Shown piece by piece: positions 222 through 63,823 of a DNA stretch of 64,000 bases. The notes beneath the pieces were generated by a model. That model saw nothing but the letters and a program-made list of their open reading frames with translations, was not told where the DNA came from and made no database searches. Numbering within the stretch: position 1 is the stretch's first letter; each line of letters starts with the position of its first letter. Source of the DNA: Patescibacteria group bacterium (GTDB lineage Bacteria > Patescibacteriota > Patescibacteriia > Patescibacteriales > XYC2-FULL-47-12). Position numbers and translations under genes: made by a program. The stretch is taken from positions 7,393 through 71,392 of the forward strand of contig JBAZGH010000001.1 of NCBI GenBank assembly GCA_041652935.1, given 5' to 3'.

Positions 222-227
222 ATTAAC

Positions 228-14160: not shown

Positions 14161-14163
14161 AAT

Positions 14164-16225: not shown

Positions 16226-16226
16226 T

Positions 16227-16838: not shown

Positions 16839-16840
16839 TT

Positions 16841-17905: not shown

Positions 17906-17911
17906 AATTAA

Positions 17912-18700: not shown

Positions 18701-18703
18701 TAC

Positions 18704-20042: not shown

Positions 20043-20050
20043 ACAATAAA

Positions 20051-21433: not shown

Positions 21434-21626
21434 GGGTAGGATTATAGTATATTTTTAAGATAAAAGCAAGTTTAGTTTATCTGAGCGCCAAGAGTTTTTG
21501 GCGCTGGATTTATTTACATTTTTTATTTTTTATGTTATCATATTCGGAACGCTGCTTTAGTTTTAAAAAGCAGTTTTTAGATAGGTCTTTGTAAAAAAAC
21601 GAAAAAAACGAATAGGAGACGGTGCT

Positions 21627-23297: not shown

Positions 23298-23308
23298 ATT
23301 TCTAATAA

Positions 23309-23345
23309 CCCCGTTTGAGTTAACACCTCAGCGGGTTTTTATTTT
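23309..23345 (+). terminator. Rho-independent terminator after the radical SAM gene
   Basis: An interrupted GC stem CCCG..TGAG / CTCA.CGGG is followed by TTTTTATTTT. Confidence 0.5.
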
Positions 23346-23383
23346 AAGTTGAATAACTATAAATAATCTGCTATATTAAATAC

Positions 23384-24403
23384 ATGAATAACGACAAAAA
23401 ATATGAATTTAACTGGCCGTTTTTCGGCAACCAGCACATCATCGATTTTTTACAGACCGGGATAAGCAATAACAGCCTGTCGCACTTTTATATTTTTTCC
23501 GGACCGCGGGATTTGGGGAAGTCAACGCTGGCTAATTTTTTTTCCCGTTCAATTTTGTGCGAAAATTTTAATGCCAAAAGAGGAAAACTGCCCTGTGGCG
23601 AATGCGTAAATTGCCGGCAGAAAAAGCACAGCGATATTACTGTGGTTGAAAAAGAAGCGGATAAAAAAAATATATCAATCGAGCAAATCAGGGAATTCAT
23701 AAAAATGATGAATATGGGTTCGTTTGGCAATTCCTATAAAATAGGAATTATCAGGGAAGCTGAAAATTTAAGCATTGAAGCGGCCAACGCGCTTTTAAAA
23801 ACACTGGAAGAACCAAAAAATAAAGTTTTAATAATAGCCCTTACTTCTTGGCTGGATAAATTGCCGCTGACGGTTAAATCCCGCGGCCAGACGCTTCTTT
23901 TTAAGCCCACAAGCCATGCCGGCATTTATGATTATTTAATAAAAGAGCATAAAGCGTCGCGCGACTTTGCCCTGAAACTTTCAAAAATATCAGTCGGCCG
24001 GCCGGCTTTGGCTGCCAAGTTGTTTCAGGAGGAAGAATTATTTAAACAGAGAAAACAAACCGCTGAATCGCTGATTAATGTTATAAGGGGGGATTTAAAT
24101 TTAAAATTTAAAGAAATAGATAGTTTATTGGGCGCGGGAAAAAATACTCAAGAGCAGAGGGAAAACGCCTTATTTATCTTAGAAATTTGGCAGACTATCG
24201 CCAGGGATCTTTTAATGATTCAGTCCGGATTGAGCGAATTTTCTATAAATGGATTTTCCTCTTCAGAATTAAATAGATTAAATTTAAACAGCCATGGTCT
24301 GATAATGCTGAATGACAATATTAAAAAAGGAAGGGGATATTTAGCCGCTAATGTTAATCCTAAATTAGTTTTGGAAAATATCTGCCTACAAATTACGAAT
24401 TAG
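23384..24403 (+). CDS. holB: DNA polymerase III delta' subunit
   Basis: 339 aa. FSGPRDLGKSTLANFF is an AAA+ Walker A-like motif. A C-x-x-C zinc module and a T.SW motif are present. Confidence 0.7.
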   Translation: MNNDKKYEFNWPFFGNQHIIDFLQTGISNNSLSHFYIFSGPRDLGKSTLANFFSRSILCENFNAKRGKLPCGECVNCRQKKHSDITVVEKEADKKNISIEQIREFIKMMNMGSFGNSYKIGIIREAENLSIEAANALLKTLEEPKNKVLIIALTSWLDKLPLTVKSRGQTLLFKPTSHAGIYDYLIKEHKASRDFALKLSKISVGRPALAAKLFQEEELFKQRKQTAESLINVIRGDLNLKFKEIDSLLGAGKNTQEQRENALFILEIWQTIARDLLMIQSGLSEFSINGFSSSELNRLNLNSHGLIMLNDNIKKGRGYLAANVNPKLVLENICLQITN

Positions 24404-24406
24404 TTT

Positions 24407-24483
24407 ATAAAGTTTAAAAGTTGAAAGTTAAAAAGTTCTTGTAAATAAAATACTTTTTAACTTTTAACTTTCTAACTTTTAAT
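24407..24483. repeat. Imperfect palindrome built from AAAGTTN and AACTTTN heptamers around a conserved loop TGTAAATAAAATACTTT (copy A of a family)
   Basis: Read directly. The left arm is aaagtttaaaagttgaaagttaaaaagt and the right arm is actttttaacttttaactttctaacttt. Confidence 0.7.
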
Positions 24484-24496
24484 TAATAATTATTAT

Positions 24497-25612
24497 ATGT
24501 TTAAACAACACAAAAAAGTTATATCACTTATTTTATTATTATTTGTCGCTTTGGGTTTGAGCGGCTGCAGCATTACCTTCGGGACTTCAAGCAATTCTTC
24601 AATGATTGACGGAGGGGTTTATAAGAGTTTTAACCGGGGTGTTGTTTGGAAGCAAAATTCCCTGGTCGCCTCAACCGGCAGCAAGGCAGTAAGTTTTAAT
24701 TCCGCCAACGTGGTCGCGTTAGCGATTGATCCGCAGGATGAGAACGCGATTTACGCCGGCACAGACAACGGTGGAATGCTTTATTCATACGACGGCGGAG
24801 CCAGCTGGAGCGTTGCCCGCGACTTAGGAAAAAGGTATGTGAAAGACATAAAAATAAGCCCGGTTGATAAATGCACAATTTATATTGCTTCCGAGAATAA
24901 AGTATTTAAGTCCGACGACTGCAGCCGGACATGGGATGATGTGTATTATGATAATAATACCGGCGTAATGATAAGAAGTTTAGCAATAGACCCCAGAAAT
25001 GAAAATATAATTTATGCCGGAACTTCGCGGGGAGATGTCATCACATCCTCAGATGCCGGAAAATCATGGAGCGCGCTGAAAAGATTCAGCGAAGATAAAT
25101 TATTCCGCGGCAAGAGCGAGATGAATATTATAAAAATTATTGTCAACCCAAAAAACAGTAATAATTTATGGATAGCCACCGAAGCCAACGGAGTCTTTAA
25201 AAGTATGGATAGGGGGGCGACTTGGCAGAGTTTTGAAGAAGAGTTTAAAGAAATTAACACTTCTAATTCAATATTAGTCAGTGATTTTGATCTTTTTGCC
25301 GGAGACGGGAAAACTATTATAGTTGCTACTAAAGCTGGATTATTAAGAAGTTTTGACGCCGGCGCGCATTGGCAGGTAGTTGATTTAGTCCCTCCATCAG
25401 ACAGCACCGCCATTAACGCGGTTAGGATGCATCCAACCGACGCCAGCATTATCTATTACGCTACAAACACCTCGTTTGGCAGCACAGACGACGGCGGGCA
25501 GGAATGGACCTCAAAGAAACTGCCAAGCACCCGGGCTGGCGCAGTTTTAATATCTGATCCAAGTGATTCTGACGTAGTTTATTTAGGAGTCAAATCAATA
25601 GTTCAGAAATAA
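24497..25612 (+). CDS. Lipoprotein with five BNR/Asp-box repeats (beta-propeller)
   Basis: 371 aa. The lipobox is LSGCS. Five S-x-D-x-G-x-x-W boxes are present: SYDGGASW, SSDAGKSW, SMDRGATW, SFDAGAHW, STDDGGQEW. Confidence 0.65.
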   Translation: MFKQHKKVISLILLLFVALGLSGCSITFGTSSNSSMIDGGVYKSFNRGVVWKQNSLVASTGSKAVSFNSANVVALAIDPQDENAIYAGTDNGGMLYSYDGGASWSVARDLGKRYVKDIKISPVDKCTIYIASENKVFKSDDCSRTWDDVYYDNNTGVMIRSLAIDPRNENIIYAGTSRGDVITSSDAGKSWSALKRFSEDKLFRGKSEMNIIKIIVNPKNSNNLWIATEANGVFKSMDRGATWQSFEEEFKEINTSNSILVSDFDLFAGDGKTIIVATKAGLLRSFDAGAHWQVVDLVPPSDSTAINAVRMHPTDASIIYYATNTSFGSTDDGGQEWTSKKLPSTRAGAVLISDPSDSDVVYLGVKSIVQK

Positions 25613-25630
25613 TTAAATAAATTTATAAAT

Positions 25631-26185
25631 ATGAACCAATACATTCAACAATATCAAGGAGAATTAACGCAGGCGATTGAGCATTTTAAAAAAGAAATTG
25701 CCAGCATCCGCACCGGGCGGGCAAACCCGGCCATATTGGACGCCGTACAAGTTGAATCTTACGGCGTTAAAGTCCCGTTACAGCAAGTGGGCAATATTTC
25801 AGTAGTTGACGCGCATTGCATGACCATAACTCCCTGGGATAAAAATATATTAAAAGAGGTTGAAAAAGGAATTGTAGAGGCAGACCTGGGAATTTCACCG
25901 GTTAACGAGGGTGATAAAATAAGAATTACTATTCCCCAGCCGACCGAAGAAGACCGCAAAAGCAGGGTAAAGAAACTAAATGAAAAATTGGAAGTTTCCC
26001 GCGTGCAAATAAGGCAAGCCAGAGATAAGATAAAAGACGCCATAGAAAAAGCGGAAGACGATAAAGATATTTCCGAGGATGATAAATTCAGGTTTTTGAA
26101 GGAAATGGAAGAAATAGTAAAGAACAACAATGATAAATTGCAAGAAATAAGAGACGGCAAGGAGAAGGAGATAATGACCATCTAA
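25631..26185 (+). CDS. frr: Ribosome recycling factor
   Basis: 184 aa. IASIRTGRANPAILD is the RRF signature. Confidence 0.85.
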   Translation: MNQYIQQYQGELTQAIEHFKKEIASIRTGRANPAILDAVQVESYGVKVPLQQVGNISVVDAHCMTITPWDKNILKEVEKGIVEADLGISPVNEGDKIRITIPQPTEEDRKSRVKKLNEKLEVSRVQIRQARDKIKDAIEKAEDDKDISEDDKFRFLKEMEEIVKNNNDKLQEIRDGKEKEIMTI

Positions 26186-26187
26186 GT

Positions 26188-26266
26188 TAGAAAGTTGAAA
26201 GTCAAAAGTTATAAAGTGCCTGTAAACAAAATACTTTCTAACTTTCAACTTTTAAACTTTTAACTT
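26188..26266. repeat. Copy B of the AAAGTT/AACTTT palindromic element, sharing the loop TGTAAACAAAATACTTT
   Basis: agaaagttgaaagtcaaaagtt ... actttctaactttcaacttttaaactttt. It is about 75% identical to copy A. Confidence 0.7.
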
Positions 26267-26271
26267 ACACT

Positions 26272-27420
26272 ATGTTCACAACAATTATTATATTTTTAGT
26301 TATTTTATCTATTCTAGTTTTTGCCCACGAACTGGGACATTTTTGGACTGCCAAGAAACTGGGCTTAACGCCCAAAGAGTTTGGCTTTGGTTTTCCTCCC
26401 AGAATTGGAGGGTTTTATAAAACTAAGCAAGGCAAATGGCGTTGGAAATGGGGGGGCGGTAAAATAGAAAATATAACGGGAACAATTTACTCAATAAATT
26501 ATCTGCCATTGGGAGGATTTGTTAATGTCGGCGAAGATGATGACATTGGAGGAGACGAAGAGTTAAAAAATGACCCAAAACATTTTAAAAACCAAAAGCC
26601 ATGGAAGCGAGGTGTGATTTTAACCGCCGGGGTGGTGATGAATTTAATACTGGCGGCCGTATTTTTTTCTATCGGCTATATGATTGGTTTGCCTAAAGTT
26701 GTGGATGAGGTTGGTCCGGGAGCGCGGTTTTCGGAAAAAAATATCCAAGTTGTCCAGATTCTTAGCAATACTCCGGCCGAGGAAGCGGGAGTTAAGGTGG
26801 GGGATATAATCATATCGATAAATGGGCAGGAATTTGCAAATTACAAAGATTTAAGCGATTTTGCCGCTTCTAAAAATAATGAACAGCTTGATTATAAAAT
26901 TAAGCGCGGCAAAGAAGAGCTGGATTTAATGATTGTTCCAGAGCCGATTTTTGAAAATGACAATATACCGGGAATTGGAATCGCGATTGCCGAAACCGGC
27001 TTAGTTAGTTATCCATGGTATCTGGCGATTTGGGAAGGTATAAAAACAACCATATTTTTAACCTGGTATATCATAGTTGCTTTTGCAGTTCTGATTAAAA
27101 GTTTAATAATGGGTCATGGAGCCGGGGTGGAAATAGCCGGACCGGTTGGAATCGCCAATATGACGGGGCAGATGGCGCAGCTGGGCTTTGTTTATATTCT
27201 GCAGTTTTCCGCTATTTTATCGATTAACCTGGCGATTATAAATTATTTGCCGTTTCCGGCGCTGGATGGCGGGCGGGTGTTATTTTTAATTATAGAAAAA
27301 TTCCGCGGCAAGCCGGTTTCGGAAAAAGTAGAAGCCTTTATGCATAATTTGGGCTTTATATTATTAATGCTCGCGGTTGCGGTTGTAACTCTTAGGGATG
27401 TGTTAAAATTGTTTAATTAA
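26272..27420 (+). CDS. rseP: RIP zinc metalloprotease (site-2 protease, RseP-like) with a PDZ domain
   Basis: 382 aa. It has HELGHF (HExxH), a PDZ domain in the middle and the C-terminal LDGG motif. Confidence 0.8.
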   Translation: MFTTIIIFLVILSILVFAHELGHFWTAKKLGLTPKEFGFGFPPRIGGFYKTKQGKWRWKWGGGKIENITGTIYSINYLPLGGFVNVGEDDDIGGDEELKNDPKHFKNQKPWKRGVILTAGVVMNLILAAVFFSIGYMIGLPKVVDEVGPGARFSEKNIQVVQILSNTPAEEAGVKVGDIIISINGQEFANYKDLSDFAASKNNEQLDYKIKRGKEELDLMIVPEPIFENDNIPGIGIAIAETGLVSYPWYLAIWEGIKTTIFLTWYIIVAFAVLIKSLIMGHGAGVEIAGPVGIANMTGQMAQLGFVYILQFSAILSINLAIINYLPFPALDGGRVLFLIIEKFRGKPVSEKVEAFMHNLGFILLMLAVAVVTLRDVLKLFN

Positions 27421-27424
27421 ATAA

Positions 27425-29077
27425 ATGATTAAAAAATTATTCACCTCTAAAATAAATTCAATTACTTCAGCAGCAATAATTGTCGCGGCGGCGTCGGTAG
27501 CCAGCCGCTTTTTAGGTATTTTCCGCGATAGGATTTTAGCCGGTGAATTCGGCGCCGGCGATACGCTTGATATCTATTATGCCGCTTTTCGCGTTCCTGA
27601 TTTAGTTTTTAATTTGCTTGTTTTAGGCGCGCTGTCAGCCGGTTTTATCCCGGTATTTGCCGGCTTATGCGAGAAAAAATCCGTTTTTAAATTTTTATGC
27701 CGCGGTAAAGAGAAGTGCGGCCAAGAGGCCTGGTATGTCGCCAACGCGGTAGTGAACTTAATCGGCATTTCTTTGATTATTATTTCAGCAATTTTAGTTA
27801 TTTTTACTCCCCAACTAATGCGTTTAATTACTCCAGGATTTGACGGGGAAAAGTTAAGCATGACAATAGCAATGACCCGCATTATGTTTTTATCTCCATT
27901 CTTTTTGGGTTTAAGTTCGGTTATGGGCGGAATTTTACAGTCATTTAAAAGATTTTTTGTCTATTCAGTCGCGCCGATAATGTATAATATCGGGATTATA
28001 ATCGGCGCTTTGTATTTTGTTCCGATTTGGGGAATTTACGGCTTGGCCTATGGAGTCGTTTTCGGCGCCCTGCTGCATTTTTTAATTCAGGTTCCGACTG
28101 CTTTCCATCTTGGCTACCGTTGGCAGCCGGTGCTTAATTTAAAAAATAAAAATGTCAGGGAAATAATAAAGATGATGGTTCCCCGGACAATGAGTTTGGC
28201 GATTTCCCAGATAAATTTAGTTGTAATTACTATTATCGCCTCTACTCTAGCGGCCGGCAGTTTGGCGATTTTTAATTTTGCCAATAATTTACAGTCATTT
28301 CCCATAGGCATATTCGGCATTTCTTTCGCGATAGCGGCTTTTCCAACCCTATCGTCTTTAGCGGATAGAAAGGAAGAACTAATCCGCAATTTTTCCAAAG
28401 TATTGCGCCAAATTATTTTTTTCATTCTGCCGGCAACAGTTTTCATACTGACTTTGCGCGTGCAAATTATCCGCGTTGTTCTCGGAAGCGGCCAGTTTGA
28501 CTGGGAAGACACTATTTTAACCATGGATACTTTGACTTTTTTTAGTTTAAGTTTATTCGCGCAAGCAACCATCCCGCTTTTAATCCGCATGTTTTACGCC
28601 CAGAAAGACAGCAAGACTCCATTCATTGTCGGCTTAATTTCAGCCATAGCTAATATATTTTTAAGTTTGTGGCTTGCCTCCCGCATGGGCATAGCCGGTT
28701 TGGCGCTGGCTTTTTCCATCGCCATGATAATAAATTTTGCCCTGCTTTGGCTTTTATTAAAAGCAAGGTTGGGCGAATTGGATGAAGTAAATATACTCTA
28801 CTCAACTTTAAAAATTTCTTTAGCCAGTATTTGCGCAGGTCTGGGCGTACAGGCCATGAAATTAATCGTCGGCTCTTCTGCGGTTATTGACATGACCCGT
28901 TTTTGGGGTATATTTACCCAAAGTGCTGTTGCTGGAATTTTCGGCTTGTTTATTTTTATTCTGCTTTGCTGGATGCTGCATGTGGAAGAGCTTTATAATT
29001 TTGTCCGCAGCATCCGCGCCAGAGCCAAGCGGGAAAAAGTTGAAACCGAGGGGCATGGCGAAGCGCGAGGCATTTAA
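27425..29077 (+). CDS. murJ: Lipid II flippase MurJ (MviN family)
   Basis: 550 aa with about 14 transmembrane helices. The N-terminal SRFLGIFRDRILAGEFGAG is typical of MurJ. Confidence 0.8.
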   Translation: MIKKLFTSKINSITSAAIIVAAASVASRFLGIFRDRILAGEFGAGDTLDIYYAAFRVPDLVFNLLVLGALSAGFIPVFAGLCEKKSVFKFLCRGKEKCGQEAWYVANAVVNLIGISLIIISAILVIFTPQLMRLITPGFDGEKLSMTIAMTRIMFLSPFFLGLSSVMGGILQSFKRFFVYSVAPIMYNIGIIIGALYFVPIWGIYGLAYGVVFGALLHFLIQVPTAFHLGYRWQPVLNLKNKNVREIIKMMVPRTMSLAISQINLVVITIIASTLAAGSLAIFNFANNLQSFPIGIFGISFAIAAFPTLSSLADRKEELIRNFSKVLRQIIFFILPATVFILTLRVQIIRVVLGSGQFDWEDTILTMDTLTFFSLSLFAQATIPLLIRMFYAQKDSKTPFIVGLISAIANIFLSLWLASRMGIAGLALAFSIAMIINFALLWLLLKARLGELDEVNILYSTLKISLASICAGLGVQAMKLIVGSSAVIDMTRFWGIFTQSAVAGIFGLFIFILLCWMLHVEELYNFVRSIRARAKREKVETEGHGEARGI

Positions 29078-29107
29078 CACTTAATAAATAACAATTAATA
29101 TTTAATT

Positions 29108-29416
29108 ATGAACAAAATTAATAATTTCCACAAAACAACCATCTTTACTTTTACGCTCGCTTTATTATTTATTTTTTCCGCTATTTTAGTGCAGATAAAA
29201 GGGCAAAGCGAGTTGAGTATGAATTGCAGTTATCTTGACCCCATCACCATAGATATTTTTGCTTTTATATTCGCCCTATTTTTAGTTATTGAAGGAATGT
29301 ATAAAATATATCAGGATAAAGATGCGGCATTGACGAAACAAATGACGAGGAGCATTAGAGTTTCCGTTGGCATGGCTATTTTAACTCTCCATATTCTGCA
29401 GTTTTTTTATAAGTAG
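29108..29416 (+). CDS. Small hypothetical membrane protein
   Basis: 102 aa with three predicted transmembrane segments. No recognisable family. Confidence 0.35.
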   Translation: MNKINNFHKTTIFTFTLALLFIFSAILVQIKGQSELSMNCSYLDPITIDIFAFIFALFLVIEGMYKIYQDKDAALTKQMTRSIRVSVGMAILTLHILQFFYK

Positions 29417-29467
29417 CAGCGGAATCTGTAAATAAAAAACGTAAATTATTAATATATAATTTATTTT

Positions 29468-31348
29468 ATGAATCACATACGTAACTTCTGTATAATCGCG
29501 CACATAGATCACGGCAAGTCCACATTGGCAGACAGGATGCTTGAAATAACGGGAACGGTGGAAAAAAGGAAAATGAAAGAGCAATTGCTGGACAGGATGG
29601 ACTTGGAAAGAGAGCGGGGGATAACCATTAAACTGCAGCCCGTTAATATGGAGTACGAAGGATACCATTTGAATTTAATCGATACTCCCGGGCACGTGGA
29701 TTTTTCCTATGAAGTTTCAAGAAGTTTAGCGGCTGTTGAGGGCGCTGTTTTGTTAGTGGACGCAACTCAAGGAATACAGGCGCAGACGCTGGCGAACCTT
29801 TATTTAGCGCTTGACCAAAATTTAGAGATAGTACCGGTTGTAAATAAAATTGATTTGCCCGCGGCGGATGTAAAAGGAACAAAAGAAAGCATTGTTAAAT
29901 TGCTTGGATGCAAACAAGAAGAAATTTTAGAGGCCAGCGGAAAGACCGGCGCAGGAGTGAAGGAAATTTTACAGGCAGTTATTGATTGTGTGCCGCCGCC
30001 CAAGACAACCGCGGAAAATAAATTGCGCGCTTTAATTTTTGACTCTGTTTACGACGAATATAAGGGCGTAGTCGCCTATGTCCGGCTGGTTGACGGAGAA
30101 GTTAAGAAAGGGGATGAGATAAAAATGGTTACGACTAAATATGAAAGCGACGCCCTTGATGTCGGCGTCTTCAAGCCGGATTATAAATCGACCGGAGAGC
30201 TGAGAACAGGAGAAATCGGCTATATTGTGACTGGCCTTAAATCAGTTGAAGAGTGCAAAGTCGGAGATACCATAACATTATCGAACGCTTTAATAGCGTC
30301 CCCCTCCTTAAGCGAGGGGACAGGGGTGGTGATGAAAAATAAAAATCACACCCCCCCAACCCCCCCCTCGTCCAAGGGGGGGCGCGTTCGCGCAATGGTT
30401 GTCGCACTTCCCGGCTATAAAGAAGTAAAGCCGATGGTTTTTGCGGGGATATTCTGCAAAGAGGGAAATGAGTATGAAGAGCTGCGCGAGGGCATTGGAA
30501 AATTAAAATTAACTGATTCAGCCCTGGTTTATGAACCGGAGCATTCACAGGCGCTGGGCTTCGGGTTCCGATGCGGATTTTTAGGCCTGCTTCACCTGGA
30601 AATATTCCAAGAGCGCTTGCGCCGGGAGTATGGCTTGGGGCTGGTAGTTACAACGCCTTCAGTTGCTTATCAGCTTAAAAAAACCGGCGGGGAAGAGATG
30701 ATAGTGCGCTCGGCCCTGGATATGCCTGACCCCGCGCATATCGCTTCCATAAAAGAGCCGTGGGTAACCTTAGATGTAATTTCCCCCAAAGATTATATGG
30801 GAGGAATTATGTCTTTAGTGCAGGAAAAGCGGGGAACATATAAAAATACTGAGTACATTGACGATAACCGAGTAATTTTGCATTACGAAATGCCGATGTC
30901 GACTATCCTAACTGATTTTTATGACAAAGTAAAAAGCGCAACATCTGGTTACGCTTCTATTAATTATGAATTTTTAGATTACCGGAATTGCGAGGTGCAG
31001 CGATTGGACATTTTAGTCGCAGAAGAGCAGGTTGAATCTTTGGCAACTATTGTTTATAAGGACGAGGCGTTTAAGCGCGGCAAAGAAATTGTGAACTCGC
31101 TGAAAAATACATTGCCGCGCCAGCAGTTTGTTTTAAAAATACAGGCAGCTATTGGCGGTAAAGTAATCGCGGCTGAAAGAGTGTCCGCCTTGCGGAAAGA
31201 TGTAACTGCTAAATTATACGGCGGCGATGTTTCCCGCAAGCGCAAACTTTTAGAAAAGCAGAAAAAAGGGAAGAAGAAAATGATGTCTATGGGCAAGGGC
31301 AAGGTTGATATTCCGCCGGAGGCGTTCCTTGCGGTGTTAAAGAAATAA
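29468..31348 (+). CDS. lepA: Elongation factor 4 (LepA), carrying a roughly 34-aa in-frame insertion
   Basis: 626 aa. The G-domain motif NFCIIAHIDHGKSTLADR and the LepA C-terminal domain are present. The insertion lies between TITLSNA and ALPGYKEVKP. Confidence 0.85.
   Translation: MNHIRNFCIIAHIDHGKSTLADRMLEITGTVEKRKMKEQLLDRMDLERERGITIKLQPVNMEYEGYHLNLIDTPGHVDFSYEVSRSLAAVEGAVLLVDATQGIQAQTLANLYLALDQNLEIVPVVNKIDLPAADVKGTKESIVKLLGCKQEEILEASGKTGAGVKEILQAVIDCVPPPKTTAENKLRALIFDSVYDEYKGVVAYVRLVDGEVKKGDEIKMVTTKYESDALDVGVFKPDYKSTGELRTGEIGYIVTGLKSVEECKVGDTITLSNALIASPSLSEGTGVVMKNKNHTPPTPPSSKGGRVRAMVVALPGYKEVKPMVFAGIFCKEGNEYEELREGIGKLKLTDSALVYEPEHSQALGFGFRCGFLGLLHLEIFQERLRREYGLGLVVTTPSVAYQLKKTGGEEMIVRSALDMPDPAHIASIKEPWVTLDVISPKDYMGGIMSLVQEKRGTYKNTEYIDDNRVILHYEMPMSTILTDFYDKVKSATSGYASINYEFLDYRNCEVQRLDILVAEEQVESLATIVYKDEAFKRGKEIVNSLKNTLPRQQFVLKIQAAIGGKVIAAERVSALRKDVTAKLYGGDVSRKRKLLEKQKKGKKKMMSMGKGKVDIPPEAFLAVLKK
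30296..30398. mobile_element. GC-rich palindromic miniature element inserted in frame within lepA
   Basis: Hairpin 1 is GTCCCCCTC-CTTAAGC-GAGGGGAC. AGGGGTGGTG and CACACCCCCC are complementary. Hairpin 2 is CCCCCCC-TCGTCCAA-GGGGGGG. The element is about 60-70% GC in an AT-rich gene and resembles the element at 42711-42872. Confidence 0.55.
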
Positions 31349-31468
31349 CACAACACGTATTACATAACGCAAACATATGAAAAGAAAAACAATTAAAAAA
31401 GTTATCGGCACCAGCATAATAATCATAATGATTATCGCTATGCTGTTATTTACTTTAATGCCGTTGTT

Positions 31469-31509
31469 TTATTAAAAAATAAAAAGCCGTTTCCAATTCT
31501 GAAAACGGC
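31469..31509 (-). terminator. Rho-independent terminator for the minus-strand small gene
   Basis: On the minus strand the stem GCCGTTT / AAACGGC is followed by TTTTTATTTTTT. Confidence 0.6.
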
Positions 31510-31513
31510 AGTG

Positions 31514-31708
31514 TCATCTAGAACTCCAAAGATAATAGACCGTAATAAAACAGAGAGCGGCCAGGAACCATCTCACCACCTTATAGATTAGAAATCCGAC
31601 TGTATCCCGTATTTCTCGTCTATAAAAATAATCTTCGCCCGCTCCGATAACAATAAATCCAACGACGAATAAGATAAAGCCTAGTATAGTTTTCATTGCG
31701 GGGTCCAT
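31514..31708 (-). CDS. Small two-helix membrane protein
   Basis: 64 aa. A strong SD AGGAGG lies 8 nt upstream, and its own terminator follows. Confidence 0.5.
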   Translation of the reverse strand: MDPAMKTILGFILFVVGFIVIGAGEDYFYRREIRDTVGFLIYKVVRWFLAALCFITVYYLWSSR

Positions 31709-31761
31709 TTCCGCCTCCTTTTTTGAAATAGATGTAAAGATATTAGCATTATTTTAAAGTT

Positions 31762-33573
31762 TTGTCAATTTTTATGGATAAAAAGTGGATTATAAAGGAA
31801 AAACAGGAATACACTAAAAACAATCCGGGATTGCACCCGGTTATTTTTCGATTACTGGCAAATCGCGGTTTTAGCGTTGATGAAATAGAGAAATTTTTAA
31901 AGCTGGATTACAAGGAAAATTTACATGATCCATTCTTATTTAAAAATATGAAAGCAGCGGTAGAATTGATTTTTAAGCACATGAAGAATGGAAGCAGAAT
32001 TATAATATACGGAGATTATGACGCTGACGGTGTTACAGCCACGGCGGTTATGCAGAAGACATTGGAATTTTTAGGATGCAAGAATTTAGATATTTACATT
32101 CCCCACCGCGAAAGCGAGGGATACGGCATAAATAAAAGCGCGGTAGAGGAAATTGCCAAAAGCGGCGCTAGTTTAATTATCACAGTTGATACCGGCATTA
32201 GAAGCATCGGCGAGGTTGCGCTAGCTAAAGAAAAGGGAATGGACGTTGTTTTAACCGACCATCATGAATGCGGCGAACAGGTTCCCGATTGCTTGATTAT
32301 TAATCCAAAAGTTAACGGCGAAAAATATCCATTCAGGGATTTGGCCGGAGTTGGCGTGGCGTTTAAAGTGTCGCAGGCGTTGTTGTACGCACGCGAAAAC
32401 CATGCGCAACATAACGCAAAACAACGCGAAAAAGAGGGATTTGAAAAGTGGCTATTGGATTTAGTAGCCATAGGCACCATTGCTGATTTAATGCCATTAG
32501 TTAATGAGAATAGAGTTTTGGTGAATTATGGATTAGTCGTATTGAATAAGACGCAGAGAATCGGCATTAAAAAATTAATGGAAACCGCGCAAAGCGATAC
32601 TGATAAAAATGGAAATAAGCGGGAAGTTGACGCTTGGCAAATTGGTTATCAATTAGCCCCTCGCTTAAATGCGGCTGGTCGGCTTGGGCGCGCAAATACG
32701 GCCTACGAATTACTTATTACTGAAGATAAACAAGAAGCAACAGAAATAGCCCATAAATTAGACAATACGAATAAAGAACGCCAAAATATTACACAAGAAA
32801 TTTTTGAGCAGGCAGAGCAAGAGATTAATAAGAAAAACAAAATTTTATTTGCTGTTTATAATGGAGAGCAAAAGAACGCCTGGTCTTCAGGAGTGATGGG
32901 TTTGGTGGCTGGAAAATTAACAGAAAAATATTACCGGCCATCGTTGGCGATTACAAGCAAAATTGGCAATGATGGGTTGGAAATTGTCGGGAGCGCCAGA
33001 AGTATTGCTGAATTTAACATTACATCCATGCTGGAGGAATGCGGTGAATTATTATCGCATTACGGCGGGCACAAACAGGCGGCCGGATTCACCATAAAGC
33101 CGGGAAAATTAGATGAGTTTTTAGCCAAAGCAAAAAAAATTACTGAACATGAATTAAAAGATGTTGAATTAATCCCCGCCCTAGAAATTGATTTAGAGAT
33201 AAATTTTAATGACGTGTCTGAAGATTTATATGAAGCATTGCAAAAATTAAGGCCCTTCGGAGTTAAAAATGCCCAACCAAAATTTGTTAGCAAAAATTTA
33301 AAAGTGATAAATGCAGTTAAGATGGGGAATGAACAACAACATCTCAAGTTACAAGTTACAAGTTACAAGTCACAAAAATTAAGCGCAGTTGGTTTTAGCG
33401 TATTGGAAGAATGGAAAAAAATAAAAATTGGAGACGAAATTGATTTAGTGTATTATATAGATATGAACGAATGGAACGGGAGGAGGGAAGTTCAGTTGAA
33501 GATTATAGACCTAAAAAATAATTCAAATATTCAAATGAATTCAAATACCTCAAATACAAATAATTCGAATTAA
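31762..33573 (+). CDS. recJ: Single-stranded-DNA-specific exonuclease RecJ
   Basis: 603 aa. DHH motifs (IIIYGDYDADGVTA, DHH) and DHHA1 are present. The C-terminal tail is N/S-rich low-complexity sequence encoded by TTCAAAT repeats. Confidence 0.8.
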   Translation: MSIFMDKKWIIKEKQEYTKNNPGLHPVIFRLLANRGFSVDEIEKFLKLDYKENLHDPFLFKNMKAAVELIFKHMKNGSRIIIYGDYDADGVTATAVMQKTLEFLGCKNLDIYIPHRESEGYGINKSAVEEIAKSGASLIITVDTGIRSIGEVALAKEKGMDVVLTDHHECGEQVPDCLIINPKVNGEKYPFRDLAGVGVAFKVSQALLYARENHAQHNAKQREKEGFEKWLLDLVAIGTIADLMPLVNENRVLVNYGLVVLNKTQRIGIKKLMETAQSDTDKNGNKREVDAWQIGYQLAPRLNAAGRLGRANTAYELLITEDKQEATEIAHKLDNTNKERQNITQEIFEQAEQEINKKNKILFAVYNGEQKNAWSSGVMGLVAGKLTEKYYRPSLAITSKIGNDGLEIVGSARSIAEFNITSMLEECGELLSHYGGHKQAAGFTIKPGKLDEFLAKAKKITEHELKDVELIPALEIDLEINFNDVSEDLYEALQKLRPFGVKNAQPKFVSKNLKVINAVKMGNEQQHLKLQVTSYKSQKLSAVGFSVLEEWKKIKIGDEIDLVYYIDMNEWNGRREVQLKIIDLKNNSNIQMNSNTSNTNNSN

Positions 33574-34445: not shown

Positions 34446-34470
34446 CCATGAAAATAATTCAACCATTATT

Positions 34471-34527
34471 TAACGATAATTGTACAATAATTAATTATCG
34501 TTAAATTATTGTACAATTATCGTTAAA
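34471..34527. promoter_or_regulatory. Composite perfect palindrome TTAACGATAATTGTACAATAAT / ATTATTGTACAATTATCGTTAA, with an additional direct repeat AATTATCGTTAA
   Basis: Read directly. The arms are 22 bp and perfect, separated by 13 bp. The element lies between rnhA and the ftsB-like gene. Confidence 0.6.
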
Positions 34528-34544
34528 TATTTTATAATAAACCC

Positions 34545-42038: not shown

Positions 42039-42710
42039 ATGACTGTTTATATAATAATTCCAACATATAATGAAGAGAAAAGCATCAGAGCGGTTATTAA
42101 AGACATAAAAAATAGTTTCAATGAAGCCAGGATTATTATCGTTGATGATGCATCTGATGACCAGACGGTTGCCTTTGCACAAAATTTACCTATTGCCATA
42201 ATTTTACAACACGCTGTAAACAGGGGGCAGGGAGCGGCTTTAAAAACCGGTACCGAATGCGCTATAATAGAGGGAGCGGATATTATTGTACATTTTGACG
42301 CTGACGGGCAGTTTTTGGCTGATGAAATTAAAGATATGACAGCGCCCATAGTTAATGGGCAAGCAGATATTGTTTTTGGCTCGCGTTTCCTAGATAAAAA
42401 ATCAAGCATGCCATGGTTGAAAAAAAATATAATAATGCCCTTAGCGCGCTTAATTAATAAAATATTTTTTAATGTTCAATTATCTGATCCGCAGGCCGGC
42501 TTCCGCGCTTTTTCGCGAGAAGCTTATAAAAAAATAGAATGGCAACAGGATAGGATGGCGCACTGTTCGGAAATTATGCGCAATGCTTTCAAAAATAAAT
42601 TACGAATAAAAGAAGTTCCAATAACTGTGATCTATAAAGATTTCGGCCAAAAATTTTCCGGAGGATTTAGAATTTTAAAAGATATGTTTATTGGGAGGTT
42701 TACACGATAA
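42039..42710 (+). CDS. Family 2 glycosyltransferase (polyprenyl-phosphate sugar synthase-like)
   Basis: 223 aa. It has VYIIIPTYNEEKSI and a D.D motif. Confidence 0.75.
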   Translation: MTVYIIIPTYNEEKSIRAVIKDIKNSFNEARIIIVDDASDDQTVAFAQNLPIAIILQHAVNRGQGAALKTGTECAIIEGADIIVHFDADGQFLADEIKDMTAPIVNGQADIVFGSRFLDKKSSMPWLKKNIIMPLARLINKIFFNVQLSDPQAGFRAFSREAYKKIEWQQDRMAHCSEIMRNAFKNKLRIKEVPITVIYKDFGQKFSGGFRILKDMFIGRFTR

Positions 42711-42872
42711 CGCCCTCACCCCTAACCCCTCTCCCAAAGGGAGAGGGGGAAAATGTCAATTTAACTTTATTTATAATTTTATTAAATAATATAAAATAAA
42801 TAAACTCCAAAATTATTTCTGTTATGACGAGAGGGAACTCCCTCTCCTCGTGGGAGAGGGTTGGGGTGAGGG
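42711..42872. mobile_element. MITE-like element of 162 bp with imperfect GC-rich terminal inverted repeats and an AT-rich core
   Basis: The left end CCCTCACCCCTAACCCCTCTCCC-AAA-GGGAGAGGGGG and the right end CCCTCTCC-TCGTG-GGAGAGGG-TTGGGGTGAGGG are reverse complements of each other. Each contains a local hairpin. Confidence 0.6.
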
Positions 42873-42877
42873 AATAT

Positions 42878-43213
42878 ATGTTCACTCAACAAATCATCGG
42901 TCTGATAATTATCGCTTATTTTTTAATCAGACTTTACTTACAGAAAAAACAAAAACAAATTAACGCTAATGAATTTTATTTTTGGTTAATTTTTTGGATA
43001 ATAGCCGGAGCGGCTGTTTTGCTTTTAAAGCAGATTGATTTGTTGGTTCGTAATTTAGGATTTACCGCTTCCGGAATTGACGTATTATTATATTTAGCGG
43101 TGGTCACGCTATTTTATTTTGTATTCCGCTTGCGCATTCGAATGGCGAGAATAGAACATAATATTACAAGGGTTGTGAGGGAAATGGCTATTAAAAACAA
43201 GAATTATGAATAA
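42878..43213 (+). CDS. Small membrane protein (DUF2304-like) located between two GT2 genes
   Basis: The ORF track starts at 42824, inside the repeat. An internal ATG at 42878 (MFTQQIIGL...) gives a 111-aa protein with three transmembrane segments. Confidence 0.5.
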   Translation: MFTQQIIGLIIIAYFLIRLYLQKKQKQINANEFYFWLIFWIIAGAAVLLLKQIDLLVRNLGFTASGIDVLLYLAVVTLFYFVFRLRIRMARIEHNITRVVREMAIKNKNYE

Positions 43214-46040: not shown

Positions 46041-46391
46041 TTGAATTATATTATGCAAATAGAAAAATGGGAAAACATCAAAGGAATGATAAAAGACCAG
46101 TTTGAAGTTGAAGACGAGGGCAAGGAGGAATTGGAGGACGCTCCGAATAGTACCATGGAATTTATTATTTTTAATGGGCCGCTAGGCAAAATAAAGCTGG
46201 AATACATCGTTAAACCGGTGGTGCTGGATAAAAAAACAATCGGTTCTCGTCGAATCGGTTCGGAAACCACAGTGGAGTATATTTACAGCGATGATGAATT
46301 TTCCAATACTTTCAAAGCTTATAAATGGGATGATGACCGAGATGATTGGGTGGAAATGGAAAGGGAGAGGGCAAGCGCGTTTATGGCGTAA
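46041..46391 (+). CDS. Hypothetical acidic protein
   Basis: 116 aa. No recognisable family. Confidence 0.35.
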   Translation: MNYIMQIEKWENIKGMIKDQFEVEDEGKEELEDAPNSTMEFIIFNGPLGKIKLEYIVKPVVLDKKTIGSRRIGSETTVEYIYSDDEFSNTFKAYKWDDDRDDWVEMERERASAFMA

Positions 46392-46441
46392 TTCATAAAA
46401 AATTAAACAGAAATTTAACAATAATTAAACAATAATTTTTT

Positions 46442-48626: not shown

Positions 48627-49385
48627 ATGCTTAACCGCCACACACCATTAATTATCTCGATTATATTATTTTTCGGCTGGGAAATAATTGTTTTTTTTCC
48701 AAAAAATTTTTTAATTGCCGCAGCGGTTGTTATAATTTTGCCAACCATTTTATTATTAAGATTAAATAAATTTAATTTTAAGAGCGGTGATTTTTGGCTG
48801 CTGGCATCTCCCTGCCTGTTTTTAATATTATCGGCCAGTTTGTTTTTTCTTTTTCTTAACTATCCAGCGGTAAAGCATTCTGTGATTATAATTTTAACCG
48901 TAATCAGTTATTATTTCATATCTTATCTTTATTATTTTTTATGCCGGATAACAAAGTACACACCCCTTAGCTTGGAAAGCTCTTCCTCTTATTTTAATAT
49001 AATCAGTTTTTTATTTCTAAGCACCTCTTTCTATGGCTTTATAAATTTACTGAATTTAAAGATGTGGTACTTGGCGGTAATTTTAACAGCGGCGGTTTTT
49101 ATCTTAACTTACCAGTTTTTTTGGATTAATAAGGTCGGCGAGCGTAATAATTTATTAATTTCAACATTAGTTTCCATTTTGATGGCTGAATTTTTTTGGT
49201 CAATTTCCTTTCTGCCGATTTCCCACTTTATCAGCGGTCTGTCCCTTGCTATAATATACTATGTGTTAATAAATATACTGCTTTTGCATTTTTTAGAAAA
49301 ATTTGATAAAAAGACTGTAATAAAGTATTTTATCATCGGGCTATCCTGCATTTTTATTATATTATTGTCAGCTCGCTGGCTATAG
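48627..49385 (+). CDS. Hypothetical polytopic membrane protein
   Basis: 252 aa with 6-7 hydrophobic helices. Confidence 0.4.
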   Translation: MLNRHTPLIISIILFFGWEIIVFFPKNFLIAAAVVIILPTILLLRLNKFNFKSGDFWLLASPCLFLILSASLFFLFLNYPAVKHSVIIILTVISYYFISYLYYFLCRITKYTPLSLESSSSYFNIISFLFLSTSFYGFINLLNLKMWYLAVILTAAVFILTYQFFWINKVGERNNLLISTLVSILMAEFFWSISFLPISHFISGLSLAIIYYVLINILLLHFLEKFDKKTVIKYFIIGLSCIFIILLSARWL

Positions 49386-49426
49386 TTCAAAATCTTTATA
49401 CGTACTAAATACTACGTCAAACCATT

Positions 49427-49565
49427 AATTCGAATGCTTTGTACGGATTTATGCGGACACAGATGAATGCGAATGCTGCGAATTCAGTACAAACATTATT
49501 TTATTAATATTTGAGGCATTCGCATTCATCTGGGTCGTTTGAGATAAGTACAACGAATTCGAATT
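49427..49565. repeat. Nested inverted repeat. The inner 17-bp perfect inverted repeat is CAGATGAATGCGAATGC (49460-49476) / GCATTCGCATTCATCTG (49516-49532). The outer arms are AATTCGAATGCTTTGTAC / GTACAACGAATTCGAATT.
   Basis: Read directly. The core is AT-rich. Confidence 0.65.
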
Positions 49566-49610
49566 AAGGGATTGTAGAACATTTTAGTCCGCACTAATAA
49601 ACTTCTATAT

Positions 49611-50723
49611 ATGTCTAGAAATTACAAAATTACAATTTTAATAATAACAATAATAGTAAGCTTGGCAGGCGGCGTGATAGGCGGAATTATCTTCCGTTCC
49701 TATTTAATTAACTCTTCTTTCGGGATACCTCTCTGGGGAGATATTAATTTAAGCGATAATTATCAGCAAGGACAAATTGTTATCAGCCAGCCGAAAAAAG
49801 TGATTGTCGAGCAAAATGACAGGATTGCCGAAGTCGCTTCCGGAGCAATAAGGAATAAAGTAAGTTTTTACATAAAAAAACAGCCGGTTTTAAGCAACCA
49901 AGGCGGCGTTTTTAATATTAAAGAGTATTATCTTCCTGGAGATAAGGCGGGGGAGGGGTTAGTGCTTACGAATGACGGATGGGCGGTAACAGCGGTAAAA
50001 GTCAGCAAGCCCTTAAGTTATATCGCGGTTGACAGTGAAAAAGATATTATCGCCATAGAGCGGAGTTATTTTGACGAAGTAAGCGGATATTATTTCGTTA
50101 AATTAAACGCCTCTGATTTATCGGTAGCTCAGTTTACGGAGCCGGAAAGCATGAGGATAGGCCAGTTGGCAGTTGCTTTTTCAGAGGGGGGGATAAAAAC
50201 AGCTTATATTGAAAAAATAAATTATTATCCTGATTACAACTTGGTAAAATCAAGTGAAAATGATTTTAGTTATCTTAAAATAAGCGAAGAAAATTTAGCG
50301 TTGGGCGATATTTGTTTCGGCCTTGACGGCTCCGCGGTCGGCTTATACGCAAAAGAAGAGGCATTAATGCCCATAAATTATTTTAAGAAATTATTGCCCA
50401 ATTTATTAAATAAGGGTGAAATAACACGTTCTTATTTGGGAATAAATTATATTTTATTAGACGAATTAACGGGAGAAGAAAAATTAAGCGGTGCAATAAT
50501 TGCCAAAGATTCTATAGGAGTTTCCATAGAAAAGAAAAGCCCGGCAGAAGCTGCCGGATTGCTTGAGGGAGATATAATTTTGGAGATTGAAGGCAGAAAA
50601 ATCAGCGAAACAAATAATTTAAGCGATATAATACTGGGATATAAAACGGGAGAAGAAATTGAGATAAAAATTGAGCGCAGGGGAGAAGAGCGGCAAATTA
50701 AGGTGGTTTTAGGGGGGCAATAG
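49611..50723 (+). CDS. Membrane-anchored PDZ-domain protein (HtrA-like, with no visible catalytic serine motif)
   Basis: 370 aa. It has an N-terminal transmembrane segment and a C-terminal PDZ domain (GAIIAKDSIGVSIEKKSPAEAAGLLEGDIILEI). No GDSGGP motif is present. Confidence 0.5.
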   Translation: MSRNYKITILIITIIVSLAGGVIGGIIFRSYLINSSFGIPLWGDINLSDNYQQGQIVISQPKKVIVEQNDRIAEVASGAIRNKVSFYIKKQPVLSNQGGVFNIKEYYLPGDKAGEGLVLTNDGWAVTAVKVSKPLSYIAVDSEKDIIAIERSYFDEVSGYYFVKLNASDLSVAQFTEPESMRIGQLAVAFSEGGIKTAYIEKINYYPDYNLVKSSENDFSYLKISEENLALGDICFGLDGSAVGLYAKEEALMPINYFKKLLPNLLNKGEITRSYLGINYILLDELTGEEKLSGAIIAKDSIGVSIEKKSPAEAAGLLEGDIILEIEGRKISETNNLSDIILGYKTGEEIEIKIERRGEERQIKVVLGGQ

Positions 50724-59507: not shown

Positions 59508-60134
59508 TTTTGTTTTTTATACCTTTGTTTTTGCTTATACCTTTGTTTTTGCTTGTTCGCCTATTTTGGGCGGAGTAAAAGATTATTTTTGATCTTTCAC
59601 TATATATATTATATCATAGTTTGCGGTAAAAATCAAGAGGCGTTTTAGTTGTAAGTTATAAGTCTTAAGTTCTAAAGTTCTAAGCTTCAAAATTTTTAGA
59701 GTCCTAACTGGAACTATATAGTTTTAAGTTCTAGAGTTCTAATTTATATAGTTTTAGAGTTGCAAAGCTCTAGGTTATGGGCATGACAAATATTTACTTG
59801 TTGAGATCTTTTTTTATACGGTAAATAAAATTTTTTAATTTAATAATATTATAAATAAATTTTAAATTTTAATTAGTATCTGCCGGCAAAAAAATTTAAA
59901 TATATAATTTTATATTGATAATATTATTTAAAAATTAAAAATTAGATATTATTTAAAAATTAAAAAATTATAAAATTTAAAATTTTAACCATAGAACCAA
60001 TTAGCCCAAGTTATTTTAAGGTAAAAATTACATAAATTTTTTCAACTTGCAACACGGTACGATTAGTGCTATTGTAACATAATATTATAAATCAAACTTT
60101 ACGACTTTTGACTTTTAAACTTTGCAACTAAAGT
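59508..60134. repeat. AT-rich intergenic region of 627 bp packed with short tandem and inverted repeats
   Basis: TACCTTTGTTTTTGCT occurs twice in tandem (59517-59548). There are AAGTTCTAA arrays, a doubled ATTATTTAAAAATTAAAAA, and an ACTTTTGACTTTTAAACTTT arm immediately before the manC ATG. Confidence 0.6.
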
Positions 60135-61208
60135 ATGAAAATAGTTATTCTCGCCGGAGGATCCGGCAGCCGGCTTTGGCCGGTTTCTAGAAAAAATAAT
60201 CCAAAACAGGTGCAGCCGTTTTTAGACGACGATACTATGCTGCAAAAAACTTATAAGCGCCTGCGCCGCGGGTTCAATGTTGATGATATTTTTATTGCCA
60301 CAGCCGAAAGTTATATTGCGATTACCAAAAAACAGCTTCCGGAGCTTCCGCAAAAAAATATTATTAGCGAACCTTATAAGCGGGACACAGCGGCGGCCAT
60401 CGGGCTGGCGGCCATCTTTTTTTATTTCCGCAACCCGAACGAAATAATCATTACCGTGCACGCTGATCATTACATAGACGATGAAGAAGAATATATAAAA
60501 ACTTTAAAGTTGGCCGGGAAGCTAGCGGAAATTAATCCAGGAAGGGGAGTCTTGATAGGAGTAAGGCCGGCTTATCCTGAAACCGGTTTCGGCTACATAA
60601 AAATAAACGGACAATTTTTTTCCTTAAATGATAGAAAAATATTTACAGTAGAAGAATTTATTGAAAAGCCCAATTCGGAAAAAGCAAAAAATTATATCAG
60701 CAAATGGGAGTACCTTTGGAACCCCGGTTATTTTATTTGGCGGGTTGACACCCTGCTCGCTCAGTACAAAAAACATCTGCCGGAAATGTATAAAAGTTTA
60801 GTTGAGATTAATCGCGCGCTGGAAACTAAAAATGAGAAAAAAGTAATAGATAGCGAATTTAAAAAAATAACGCCAAAGGCGTTTGATTACGGCATACTGG
60901 AAAAGGCGGATAACTTATTGGTCGTGCCGACCGATTTCGTTTTTACTGACATTGGAAACTGGCGGACGGCTAAAAGAGTTTTAAGCGGCAATAAAAAAAA
61001 TGCCATAAAAGGCAAGGTTATTGAATTAGACAGTTCTAATAATTTAATTTATAATTTTACCAATAGGCCGTTAACCTGCGCCGGCTTAAAAGATATGATA
61101 ATAGTTGCGGTTGAGGACGCTACCTTGGTTTGCCACCAAGACAGCGCTCAGGATGTTAAAAAAATAGTGGAAAAATTAAAAGAGGCGGGGCTGGAAAAAT
61201 ATTTATAA
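60135..61208 (+). CDS. Mannose-1-phosphate guanylyltransferase-like nucleotidyltransferase
   Basis: 357 aa. ILAGGSGSRLWP is the NTP-transferase motif. No C-terminal isomerase domain is present. Confidence 0.7.
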   Translation: MKIVILAGGSGSRLWPVSRKNNPKQVQPFLDDDTMLQKTYKRLRRGFNVDDIFIATAESYIAITKKQLPELPQKNIISEPYKRDTAAAIGLAAIFFYFRNPNEIIITVHADHYIDDEEEYIKTLKLAGKLAEINPGRGVLIGVRPAYPETGFGYIKINGQFFSLNDRKIFTVEEFIEKPNSEKAKNYISKWEYLWNPGYFIWRVDTLLAQYKKHLPEMYKSLVEINRALETKNEKKVIDSEFKKITPKAFDYGILEKADNLLVVPTDFVFTDIGNWRTAKRVLSGNKKNAIKGKVIELDSSNNLIYNFTNRPLTCAGLKDMIIVAVEDATLVCHQDSAQDVKKIVEKLKEAGLEKYL

Positions 61209-63722: not shown

Positions 63723-63823
63723 TTAAATAGAAATTAATCAATAATTTAACAATAATTAATTAATAAATAAACATTTTGTCATTTTGAGGAGCGCCTGCCC
63801 GCAAAATGATAAATAGAAAAAAT

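Follow-up and report, generated by a model that had tools for sequence, protein, structure and literature searches.

Between a GT2 glycosyltransferase gene and a gene of the DUF2304 family, the window (by which we mean the whole 64-kb stretch of Patescibacteria DNA analysed here) carries a short G/C-rich insert with inverted ends, which raises the question of what kind of element it is and how it came to lie there. The initial annotation described it as a 162-bp MITE-like element located directly after the GT2 stop codon. It does adjoin the stop codon (TAA at 42708-42710), but the dinucleotide CG intervenes and the element proper occupies 42713-42872, i.e. 160 nt, followed by AATAT and the ATG at 42878. 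Within these limits two G/C-rich arms in inverted orientation enclose a 91-nt AT-rich core, at a genomic G+C content of 35% (0.27-0.46 in 2-kb windows along the window). The features of the locus are as follows:

42039-42710, plus strand: upstream GT2 glycosyltransferase gene (Pfam PF00535, E = 4.8e-27; named by NCBI as a Patescibacteria GT2)
42713-42748, minus strand: left arm, one TMECO/BoxC-type unit, whose parts are given here in plus-strand coordinates: C-tail 42713-42722, loop TAA 42723-42725, C-stem 42726-42735, loop AAA 42736-42738, G-stem 42739-42748
42749-42839, no strand assigned: AT-rich core, 91 nt; the spurious ATG lies at 42824, and an extra G-block GAGAGGGA towards the right end, at 42829-42836
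42840-42872, plus strand: right arm, a TMECO/BoxC-type unit; C-stem 42840-42847, loop 42848-42852, G-stem 42853-42860, TT, G-tail 42863-42872
42824-42877, plus strand: spurious, element-encoded 18-codon 5' extension of the DUF2304 call (MTRGNSLSSWERVGVRGIY); the call on record has 129 aa, with the Pfam match from residue 22
42878-43213, plus strand: DUF2304 gene (PF10066), with its real start at ATGTTCACTCAACAA (MFTQQ), judging from the sequence and from a survey of the junction in about 85 loci

On the plus strand the left arm reads CCCTCACCCC-TAA-CCCCTCTCCC-AAA-GGGAGAGGGG and the right arm CCCTCTCC-TCGTG-GGAGAGGG-TT-GGGGTGAGGG; the local hairpin that had been noted in each end is correct in both cases, as is the AT-rich character of the core (42749-42839). 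The ends had also been taken as reverse complements of each other. They are indeed inverted repeats, but inexact ones: a gapped alignment of the whole arms (33-36 nt) gives 30 identities among 33 aligned bases, with 3 mismatches and three 1-nt gaps, while the ungapped comparison reaches 74% complementarity over 31 nt. The reverse complement of the left end, GGGAGAGGGGTTAGGGGTGAGGG, has 23 nt versus 21 nt on the right, and because of this unequal length an ungapped search allowing 3 mismatches returns one copy only. As far as base pairing can be read from the letters, one unit can, as a single strand, adopt a hairpin or a purine-motif triplex, pairing between the two arms can give a stem or cruciform of about 33 bp, and the G-block GAGAGGGA in the core can pair with the right C-stem in an alternative hairpin. 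The words of the motif are far more frequent than chance predicts: the window has 2 copies of GGGTGAGGG, where 0.08 would be expected, and 6 of GGAGAGGG, where 0.66 would be, 4 of the 6 being within this element. Compared with dinucleotide shuffles, the fold of the 176-nt region has a z-score of -6.8 as DNA and -7.4 as RNA, and the RNA fold of the element amounts to -71.9 kcal/mol.

Whether this DNA is an insertion or an ancestral spacer is answered by the relatives. The comparison covered about 85 loci, comprising four close ones found via their GT2 proteins and 80 named Patescibacteria loci from GTDB; a single-protein search of metagenome contigs with GT2 returned 7 loci. The closest LepA relatives of the window are Candidatus Falkowbacteria, and the gene order lepA ... 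recJ ... ftsEX-pfkB-PTAC-GT2-DUF2304-GT2-vanZ-pilT is conserved in the relatives. In most of the Patescibacteria loci the GT2 stop and the DUF2304 start are separated by -4 to +15 nt, versus 167 nt in the window (CG, 160 nt and AATAT). The junction was therefore tight ancestrally, with the two genes probably translationally coupled, so that the 160 nt represent an insertion and the 91-nt core is not an ancestral spacer. On this point the earlier description, i.e. repeat DNA with inverted G/C-rich ends inserted into a gene junction, is borne out by the comparison of GT2-DUF2304-GT2 loci that it had called for. Most of these loci lack the spacer, and the nearest has a single arm: in L002/L003, whose GT2 is 79% identical to that of the window (the two being mutually nearest), one arm in the same orientation lies 2 nt past the stop, TAATA-CCCCACCCTAACCCTCCCCCGTGGGGAGAGGG-AATTAAAAATTAAAA, and is followed by ATTTTAATTT, which constitutes the entire spacer of L004. 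L009 reads TAACGCC as in the window and has no arm. The relatives hold zero, one or two arms at this junction.

The junction evidently tolerates inserts, since in a minority of Patescibacteria it is occupied by unrelated inverted-repeat elements (155 nt in L006, 163 in L133, 120 in L137, 232 in L167, 192 in L188 and 66 in L196). Unrelated inverted-repeat inserts are likewise found there in L154 and L218 (84-232 nt over these two and the loci just named other than L196), and in L164, L179, L185, L199, L201 and L212 the junction holds an insert of 550-690 nt, apparently an opposite-strand gene. Many GTDB loci titled "uncultured Gammaproteobacteria bacterium" (among them L141, L148, L153, L157 and L158) exhibit a GT2-DUF2304 locus of the Patescibacteria type with 54-63% identity, and their titles look mislabelled.

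The insertion has a consequence for the downstream gene. It had been suspected that the first ATG of the DUF2304 call, at 42824, lies inside the element and extends the reading frame spuriously, and that the real start is 42878; both suspicions hold. The 18 extra codons are made up of core and right arm, together with the AATAT flank before 42878. Since the homologues in relatives begin with MF(T/V)QQ at the equivalent position, and the Pfam DUF2304 match begins only at residue 22 of the 129-aa call, the true start on the sequence evidence is 42878, which is where it should be annotated; gene callers are led astray by the insertion. Located 5 nt upstream of 42878, the GAGGG in the right arm could serve as a ribosome-binding site for DUF2304.

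The identity of the arms is provided by a motif that is already known in other bacteria. Holder et al. (2015, PMC4666352) described under the name TMECO the pattern 5'-CCCTCNCCC N3-6 GGGNGAGGG N3 GGGNGAGGG, which is the same as the BoxC repeat of the 1990s (Bachellier et al.) and the PIT element of Hoyne and Maher (2000), and counted 3610 copies in 262 proteobacterial genomes. E. coli MG1655 has 23 copies, all intergenic, including five inverted pairs; the triplex is stable in vitro and was not detectable in vivo, and the sites show raised local variability between strains, being hot spots of local instability in E. coli (PMC4666352). The motif has also been described as a switch between G-quadruplex, hairpin and duplex (Kaplan et al. 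2016, PMC5100583). Our literature search on TMECO/BoxC returned nothing newer than Holder et al. 2015, and a search on palindromic repeats in Patescibacteria returned nothing relevant.

On the evidence of its sequence, each arm is such a BoxC/PIT/TMECO "intrastrand triplex motif", comprising a C-stem, a loop, a G-stem, a 3-nt loop and a mirror G-tail. The right arm fits CCCTCNCCC N3-6 GGGNGAGGG N3 GGGNGAGGG with one mismatch in the C-stem (one being allowed). The left arm is a version in the 10-nt-stem register, CCCCTCTCCC-TTT-GGGAGAGGGG-TTA-GGGGTGAGGG, with the E. coli type-A loops TTT and TTA, and it misses the strict 9-nt regular expression solely through this register; against complete E. 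coli genomes the 37-nt left arm finds a match in 4315 of 5426, the best with 94.4% identity over 36 nt. When the G-tail is laid antiparallel to its own G-stem, only G·G, A·A or T·A triplets arise (8 of 8 in the right arm, 10 of 10 in the left). The same relation holds for diverged Patescibacteria variants of the unit, among them AAGAGGAGGG / GGGTGGAGTA: the G-tail changes in step with the G-stem as a mirror repeat (G-stems GGGAGAGGG, GAGGAGGGG, AAGAGGAGGG and AGGGGGGG), with a second loop of about 3 nt, and the mean triplex fit is 0.98 with the own tail versus 0.66 with the tails of other families. This mirror covariation is the strongest hint of what is conserved in the unit. The assignment thus draws on the pattern, on the mirror G block, on the similarity to E. 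coli copies and on an occurrence that is intergenic, single or paired, and variable.

The units are widespread outside the Patescibacteria as well. The arms match 292 plasmids of PLSDB (from Klebsiella, Aeromonas, Citrobacter, Enterobacter, Pseudanabaena and others) and are 83-94% identical to copies in Proteobacteria and on cyanobacterial plasmids. The plasmid matches contrast with the report of Holder et al., who did not find the motif on plasmids, phages or transposons (PMC4666352). The hairpin-plus-tail pattern of the right arm (CCCTCTCC N3-8 GGAGAGGG N1-5 GGGTGAGGG) is present in at least 120 IMG/VR contigs with a G+C content of 0.44-0.73. Among the matches listed, units are single, in tandem and in both inverted orders, and the (-)...(+) pairs have 27-121 nt between arms that are common to them, while their cores differ; seven such pairs have a spacing of 54-121 nt (two in L060 and one each in L066, L103, L121, L117 and L061).

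It had been further claimed that the element is related to an insertion in lepA and that a dispersed family exists. The lepA insert has the following structure:

30298-30382, plus strand: element in lepA (29468-31348), in frame; unit(+) 30298-30329, core TGATGAAAAATAAAAATCA 30330-30348 and unit(-) 30349-30382, arranged tail-to-tail

Its unit(+) reads GTCCCCCTCC-TTAAGC-GAGGGGAC-A-GGGGTGG and its unit(-) CACCCCCCC-AA-CCCCCCCC-TCGTCCAA-GGGGGGG. LepA has 626 aa here versus 591-593 aa in its closest relatives, which are without the insert, with the additional residues placed between GDTITL and LPGYKEVKPMVFAG; unrelated, G/C-palindrome-like inserts occupy the same site in the LepA of several other Falkowbacteria. 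In recJ of another Patescibacteria genome (L133, positions 389-478) the lepA element recurs in frame, with about 80% identity over 87 nt and an alignment score of 39 versus -21.5 +/- 6 for shuffles. The two share the identical core TGAAAAATAAAAATCA and encode similar peptides (GVVMKNKNHTPPTPP and GVVLKNKNQTPPSP). Single units also lie in frame in recJ of L006/L136 (1823-1859, with 15 extra residues in L006, e.g. TSPPAPLLSKERVAE relative to the RecJ of the window) and of L140 (1862-1901), so that RecJ insertions are found at three different sites, all in frame. The tail-to-tail architecture of about 90 nt is intergenic in L169, in L178 and three times in L189, where intergenic spacers immediately behind stop codons are taken up by related pairs. 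A HMMER search with the lepA-insert peptide against 1.84 billion representatives returned one eukaryotic thrombospondin-repeat protein, which is spurious, and a concatenated 66-aa query of the insert peptide returned no match.

The part of the claim concerning a family therefore stands, as the recJ copy demonstrates, while the relationship proposed for this particular element does not go far: the arms of the lepA element are only 50-65% identical to those at the GT2 junction, and their arrangement is the opposite one, with the tail-to-tail order of the BoxC pair between hrpB and mrcB of E. coli (16-nt core). Judged by sequence, the GT2 element is linked to the lepA insert at the level of architecture only, and what is dispersed in the lineage is the unit and the tail-to-tail pair of about 90 nt, not the 162-bp composite.

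Taken together, we consider it probable (about 0.75) that the insert is an inverted pair of BoxC/PIT/TMECO repeats, in which each arm is one unit, and that it is selfish or driven by its structure, with no dedicated function required. The arms were probably placed in two steps, the left one in the common ancestor with L002/L003, and the core with the right one later, although the left arm shared with L002 could also reflect two independent hits at a hot spot. The most likely route would be structure-specific and would leave no target duplication, either by recognition of a single-stranded hairpin or triplex in the manner of REP/REPIN sequences, or by template switching at a stalled replication fork. 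The triplex may, however, be irrelevant in cells, since no stable triplex was found in vivo (Holder et al., PMC4666352). DUF2304, once uncoupled from GT2, would obtain the GAGGG ribosome-binding site from the right end of the element, and the element would be tolerated and persist because it is harmless and supplies that site.

A broader form of this reading, which we hold only tentatively and regard as rather doubtful, is that BoxC/TMECO-type units are a pan-bacterial mobile repeat that spreads by recognition of its structure, with no element-specific transposase, and is active even in Patescibacteria genomes of about 1 Mb. Candidates for the machinery would be a conserved host enzyme that acts on hairpin or triplex single-stranded DNA, or an unrecognised trans-acting gene; the mirror covariation of G-stem and G-tail would be the signature of its recognition, and the units would also land in frame in essential genes, as suggested by lepA and by the three sites in recJ.

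None of the competing explanations fits as well as the inverted BoxC/PIT/TMECO pair. That the insert is a selected cis-acting element, i.e. a stabiliser or terminator at the 3' end of the GT2 mRNA combined with a translation-initiation cassette for DUF2304, kept for uncoupling the expression of the two genes, appears unlikely. The very stable RNA fold would suit such a role, as would the placement of the left arm 2 nt past the stop and of the GAGGG-bearing right arm 5 nt before the start, the related pairs behind stop codons in L189, and the possible persistence of the left arm since the split from L002. On the other hand, the hairpins of the element are not followed by a U-tract and were not flagged by the terminator scan; the promoter and terminator scan of the element gave nothing above chance, with promoter-like hexamers in the core at chance level; in E. 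coli, PIT/BoxC acted neither as promoter nor as terminator (PMC4666352); the spacer is absent from most relatives; and the in-frame units in lepA and recJ are located where a role of this kind is impossible.

Quite unlikely, too, is a fuller form of the MITE-like reading of the initial annotation, according to which the insert is a true MITE, i.e. a single 160-bp non-autonomous transposon that was inserted in one step and whose ends are bound by a transposase encoded elsewhere. The element has imperfect terminal inverted repeats, is small, has no ORF and interrupts a junction that is tight in relatives; its (-)...(+) geometry with 54-121 nt between the arms recurs in unrelated contigs, and different inverted-repeat elements occupy the same junction in L006, L133, L137, L167, L188 and L196. 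However, a search for target-site duplications, which had been suggested as a check, found none, the flanks (...TAACG on the left, AATATATG on the right, i.e. CG and AATAT next to the element) containing no direct repeat. A second copy of the composite or of the 91-nt core was not found in the 64-kb window, in 2.5 Mb of fetched loci, in PLSDB plasmids or in phage records; the PLSDB matches cover arms only, with no plasmid covering 80% or more of the 162-nt query. The nearest relative has a lone arm in this position, single arms, tandem arms and inverted pairs of either order all occur, and pairs that share arms differ in their cores. No transposase was seen among the annotated neighbours or the 20 window proteins scanned. 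The repeated entity is therefore the arm of about 35 nt, not the 160-bp composite, and the "162-bp MITE" is a unique composite at best, although other copies of it may exist in the genome outside the 64-kb window. The tight ancestral junction means that the core must have had some source, which leaves room for insertion of the composite in one step.

Two candidate matches of the core were discarded. A 22-nt match at 59838-59859 of the window is low-complexity promoter-region DNA, and the alignment of the core with a spacer in L142 is no better than AT-rich background. That spacer (12707-12860) is a 154-nt intergenic region with a hairpin, 90 nt of AT-rich DNA and a hairpin with tail, which resembles the window element in geometry with no detectable homology of the core; both ORFs flanking it carry in-frame units (11613-11663 and 13597-13644).

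A purely local origin, in which the insert was generated with nothing imported, by slippage together with fold-back or template-switch synthesis at a G/C tract prone to form structures, is very improbable. Fold-back copying does yield mirror and inverted symmetry, and the TMECO sites of E. coli are hot spots of local instability (PMC4666352), but the genome has 35% G+C and the junction of the relatives offers no G/C seed; moreover, such an origin cannot explain the 83-94% identity of the arms to copies in Proteobacteria and on cyanobacterial plasmids, nor the 87-nt copy of the lepA element, about 80% identical, that another genome carries in another gene. That the contig was misassembled here or had contaminating DNA joined into it, as the close resemblance of the G/C-rich arms to enterobacterial sequence might suggest, is hardly credible, since the same 2972 bases are identical in an independent Logan assembly of SRR18595300, so that the element is not a slip of one assembly pipeline, the core is AT-rich like the host, the genes on either side are intact and keep the order seen in relatives, and related units are found in many other Patescibacteria assemblies.

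The window contains other repeats as well. A second, AT-rich palindromic family with (AAAGTT)n / (AACTTT)n arms around a conserved loop (TCTTGTAAATAAAAT and GCCTGTAAACAAAAT) is present at 24409-24479, 26184-26268 and 60096-60137, in each case intergenic and just upstream of a start codon, and a similar hairpin fills the GT2-DUF2304 junction of L196 (10663-10730). At 49401-49591 an imperfect inverted repeat with 83-nt arms, 72% complementary and 25 nt apart, fills the spacer 49385-49611 and is a candidate palindromic insert. A perfect 26-nt inverted repeat, TATTTAACGATAATTGTACAATAATT, lies at 34452-34533 (arms 34467-34492 and 34504-34529), after a gene ending at 34445; direct repeats of the AACAATAATTAA type, related to it, follow two other genes at 46389-46439 and 63709-63777. 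The G+C content of the window steps up at about 20 kb, from 0.27-0.33 (1-20000) to 0.39-0.46 (20001-32000), which marks the boundary between a block of sugar and polysaccharide genes and housekeeping genes (holB-like, frr, rseP, murJ, lepA).

For about 30 years BoxC/PIT/TMECO has counted as an orphan, a repeat without known function or route of spreading, and the present locus extends the family to a very distant, AT-rich lineage with tiny genomes. Near-identical units in a 35% G+C CPR genome, their presence or absence at a junction that is otherwise invariant and tight, and the 87-nt pair of about 80% identity that two genomes carry in different genes jointly speak for real movement of the units. 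As Patescibacteria genomes are small and simple, a mobilising factor could be sought there by phylogenetic profiling. Short G/C-rich extensions or inserts of the "PSP...GRG" type in Patescibacteria proteins can be repeat-encoded, which annotators should keep in mind. The motif family itself is already known. Four points appear to be new with respect to the literature searched: that it occurs in Patescibacteria, that two units are paired with their tails outward around a long AT-rich core, that copies lie in frame within lepA and recJ, and that G-stem and G-tail covary as mirror repeats.

Several known systems invite comparison. The Rickettsia palindromic elements (RPE) of Ogata et al. (2000) are reportedly palindromic repeats located in frame in genes of conserved proteins. 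They resemble the lepA and recJ inserts in that one open frame is reportedly always read and a short peptide is placed at a tolerated site, but they differ in having unrelated sequence and a host from another phylum, whereas the inserts described here have about 85-90 nt and consist of two triplex-motif units.

Among RNA families, the whalefall-1 model (RF01762) is similar in that its consensus has a CUCUCC/GGAGAG hairpin followed by GGGUGAGG and both arms match the full length of the model, but the 24-nt second hairpin of the model is missing in the arms, and with 16.5 and 14.9 bits versus a gathering score of 37 they are not members. At gathering thresholds Rfam finds two tRNAs only in the whole window; at permissive E-values sub-threshold plant miRNA hairpins appear beside whalefall-1, none of which represents membership.

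Like MITEs such as Nezha, Correia and RUP, the element is small, has terminal inverted repeats, codes for nothing and was inserted between genes; it differs from them in the absence of a target-site duplication, in the unrepeated composite, in arms that act independently and in that no cognate IS was found. REP/BIME/REPIN sequences, which are mobilised by RAYT, i.e. Y1 transposases of the IS200/IS605 type, are also similar, being short, G/C-rich, non-autonomous hairpins that occur as singlets and inverted doublets just downstream of genes, without target-site duplication. In REP/REPIN sequences a conserved GTAG or CGTC tetranucleotide stands at one end of the palindrome (PMC3733652), whereas the arms in the window begin with CCCTCACC and end with GGTGAGGG, with CG and AA as flanks, and thus have no such head; furthermore, their spacer is long and unconserved, the mirror third block is absent from REPs, and no RAYT (Y1 transposase) gene was found among the proteins scanned in the 64-kb window.

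The closest likeness is to BoxC/PIT/TMECO itself, in spite of some differences. The host here is a Falkowbacteria-like Patescibacteria MAG with 35% G+C, whereas the known hosts are proteobacteria or cyanobacteria; the pair in the window is arranged (-)..91 nt..(+), with G-tails pointing outward, versus (+)..16 nt..(-) for the hrpB-mrcB pair of E. coli; and both arms in the window have the TT-type second loop, while each pair of E. coli K-12 combines one type A arm with one type B arm. In both cases, however, the repeat is intergenic, single or in inverted pairs, variable between relatives and without a known function or mobilising enzyme, and its unit has the same three blocks and an almost identical sequence (GGGAGAGGG / GGGTGAGGG, with loops TTT and TTA).
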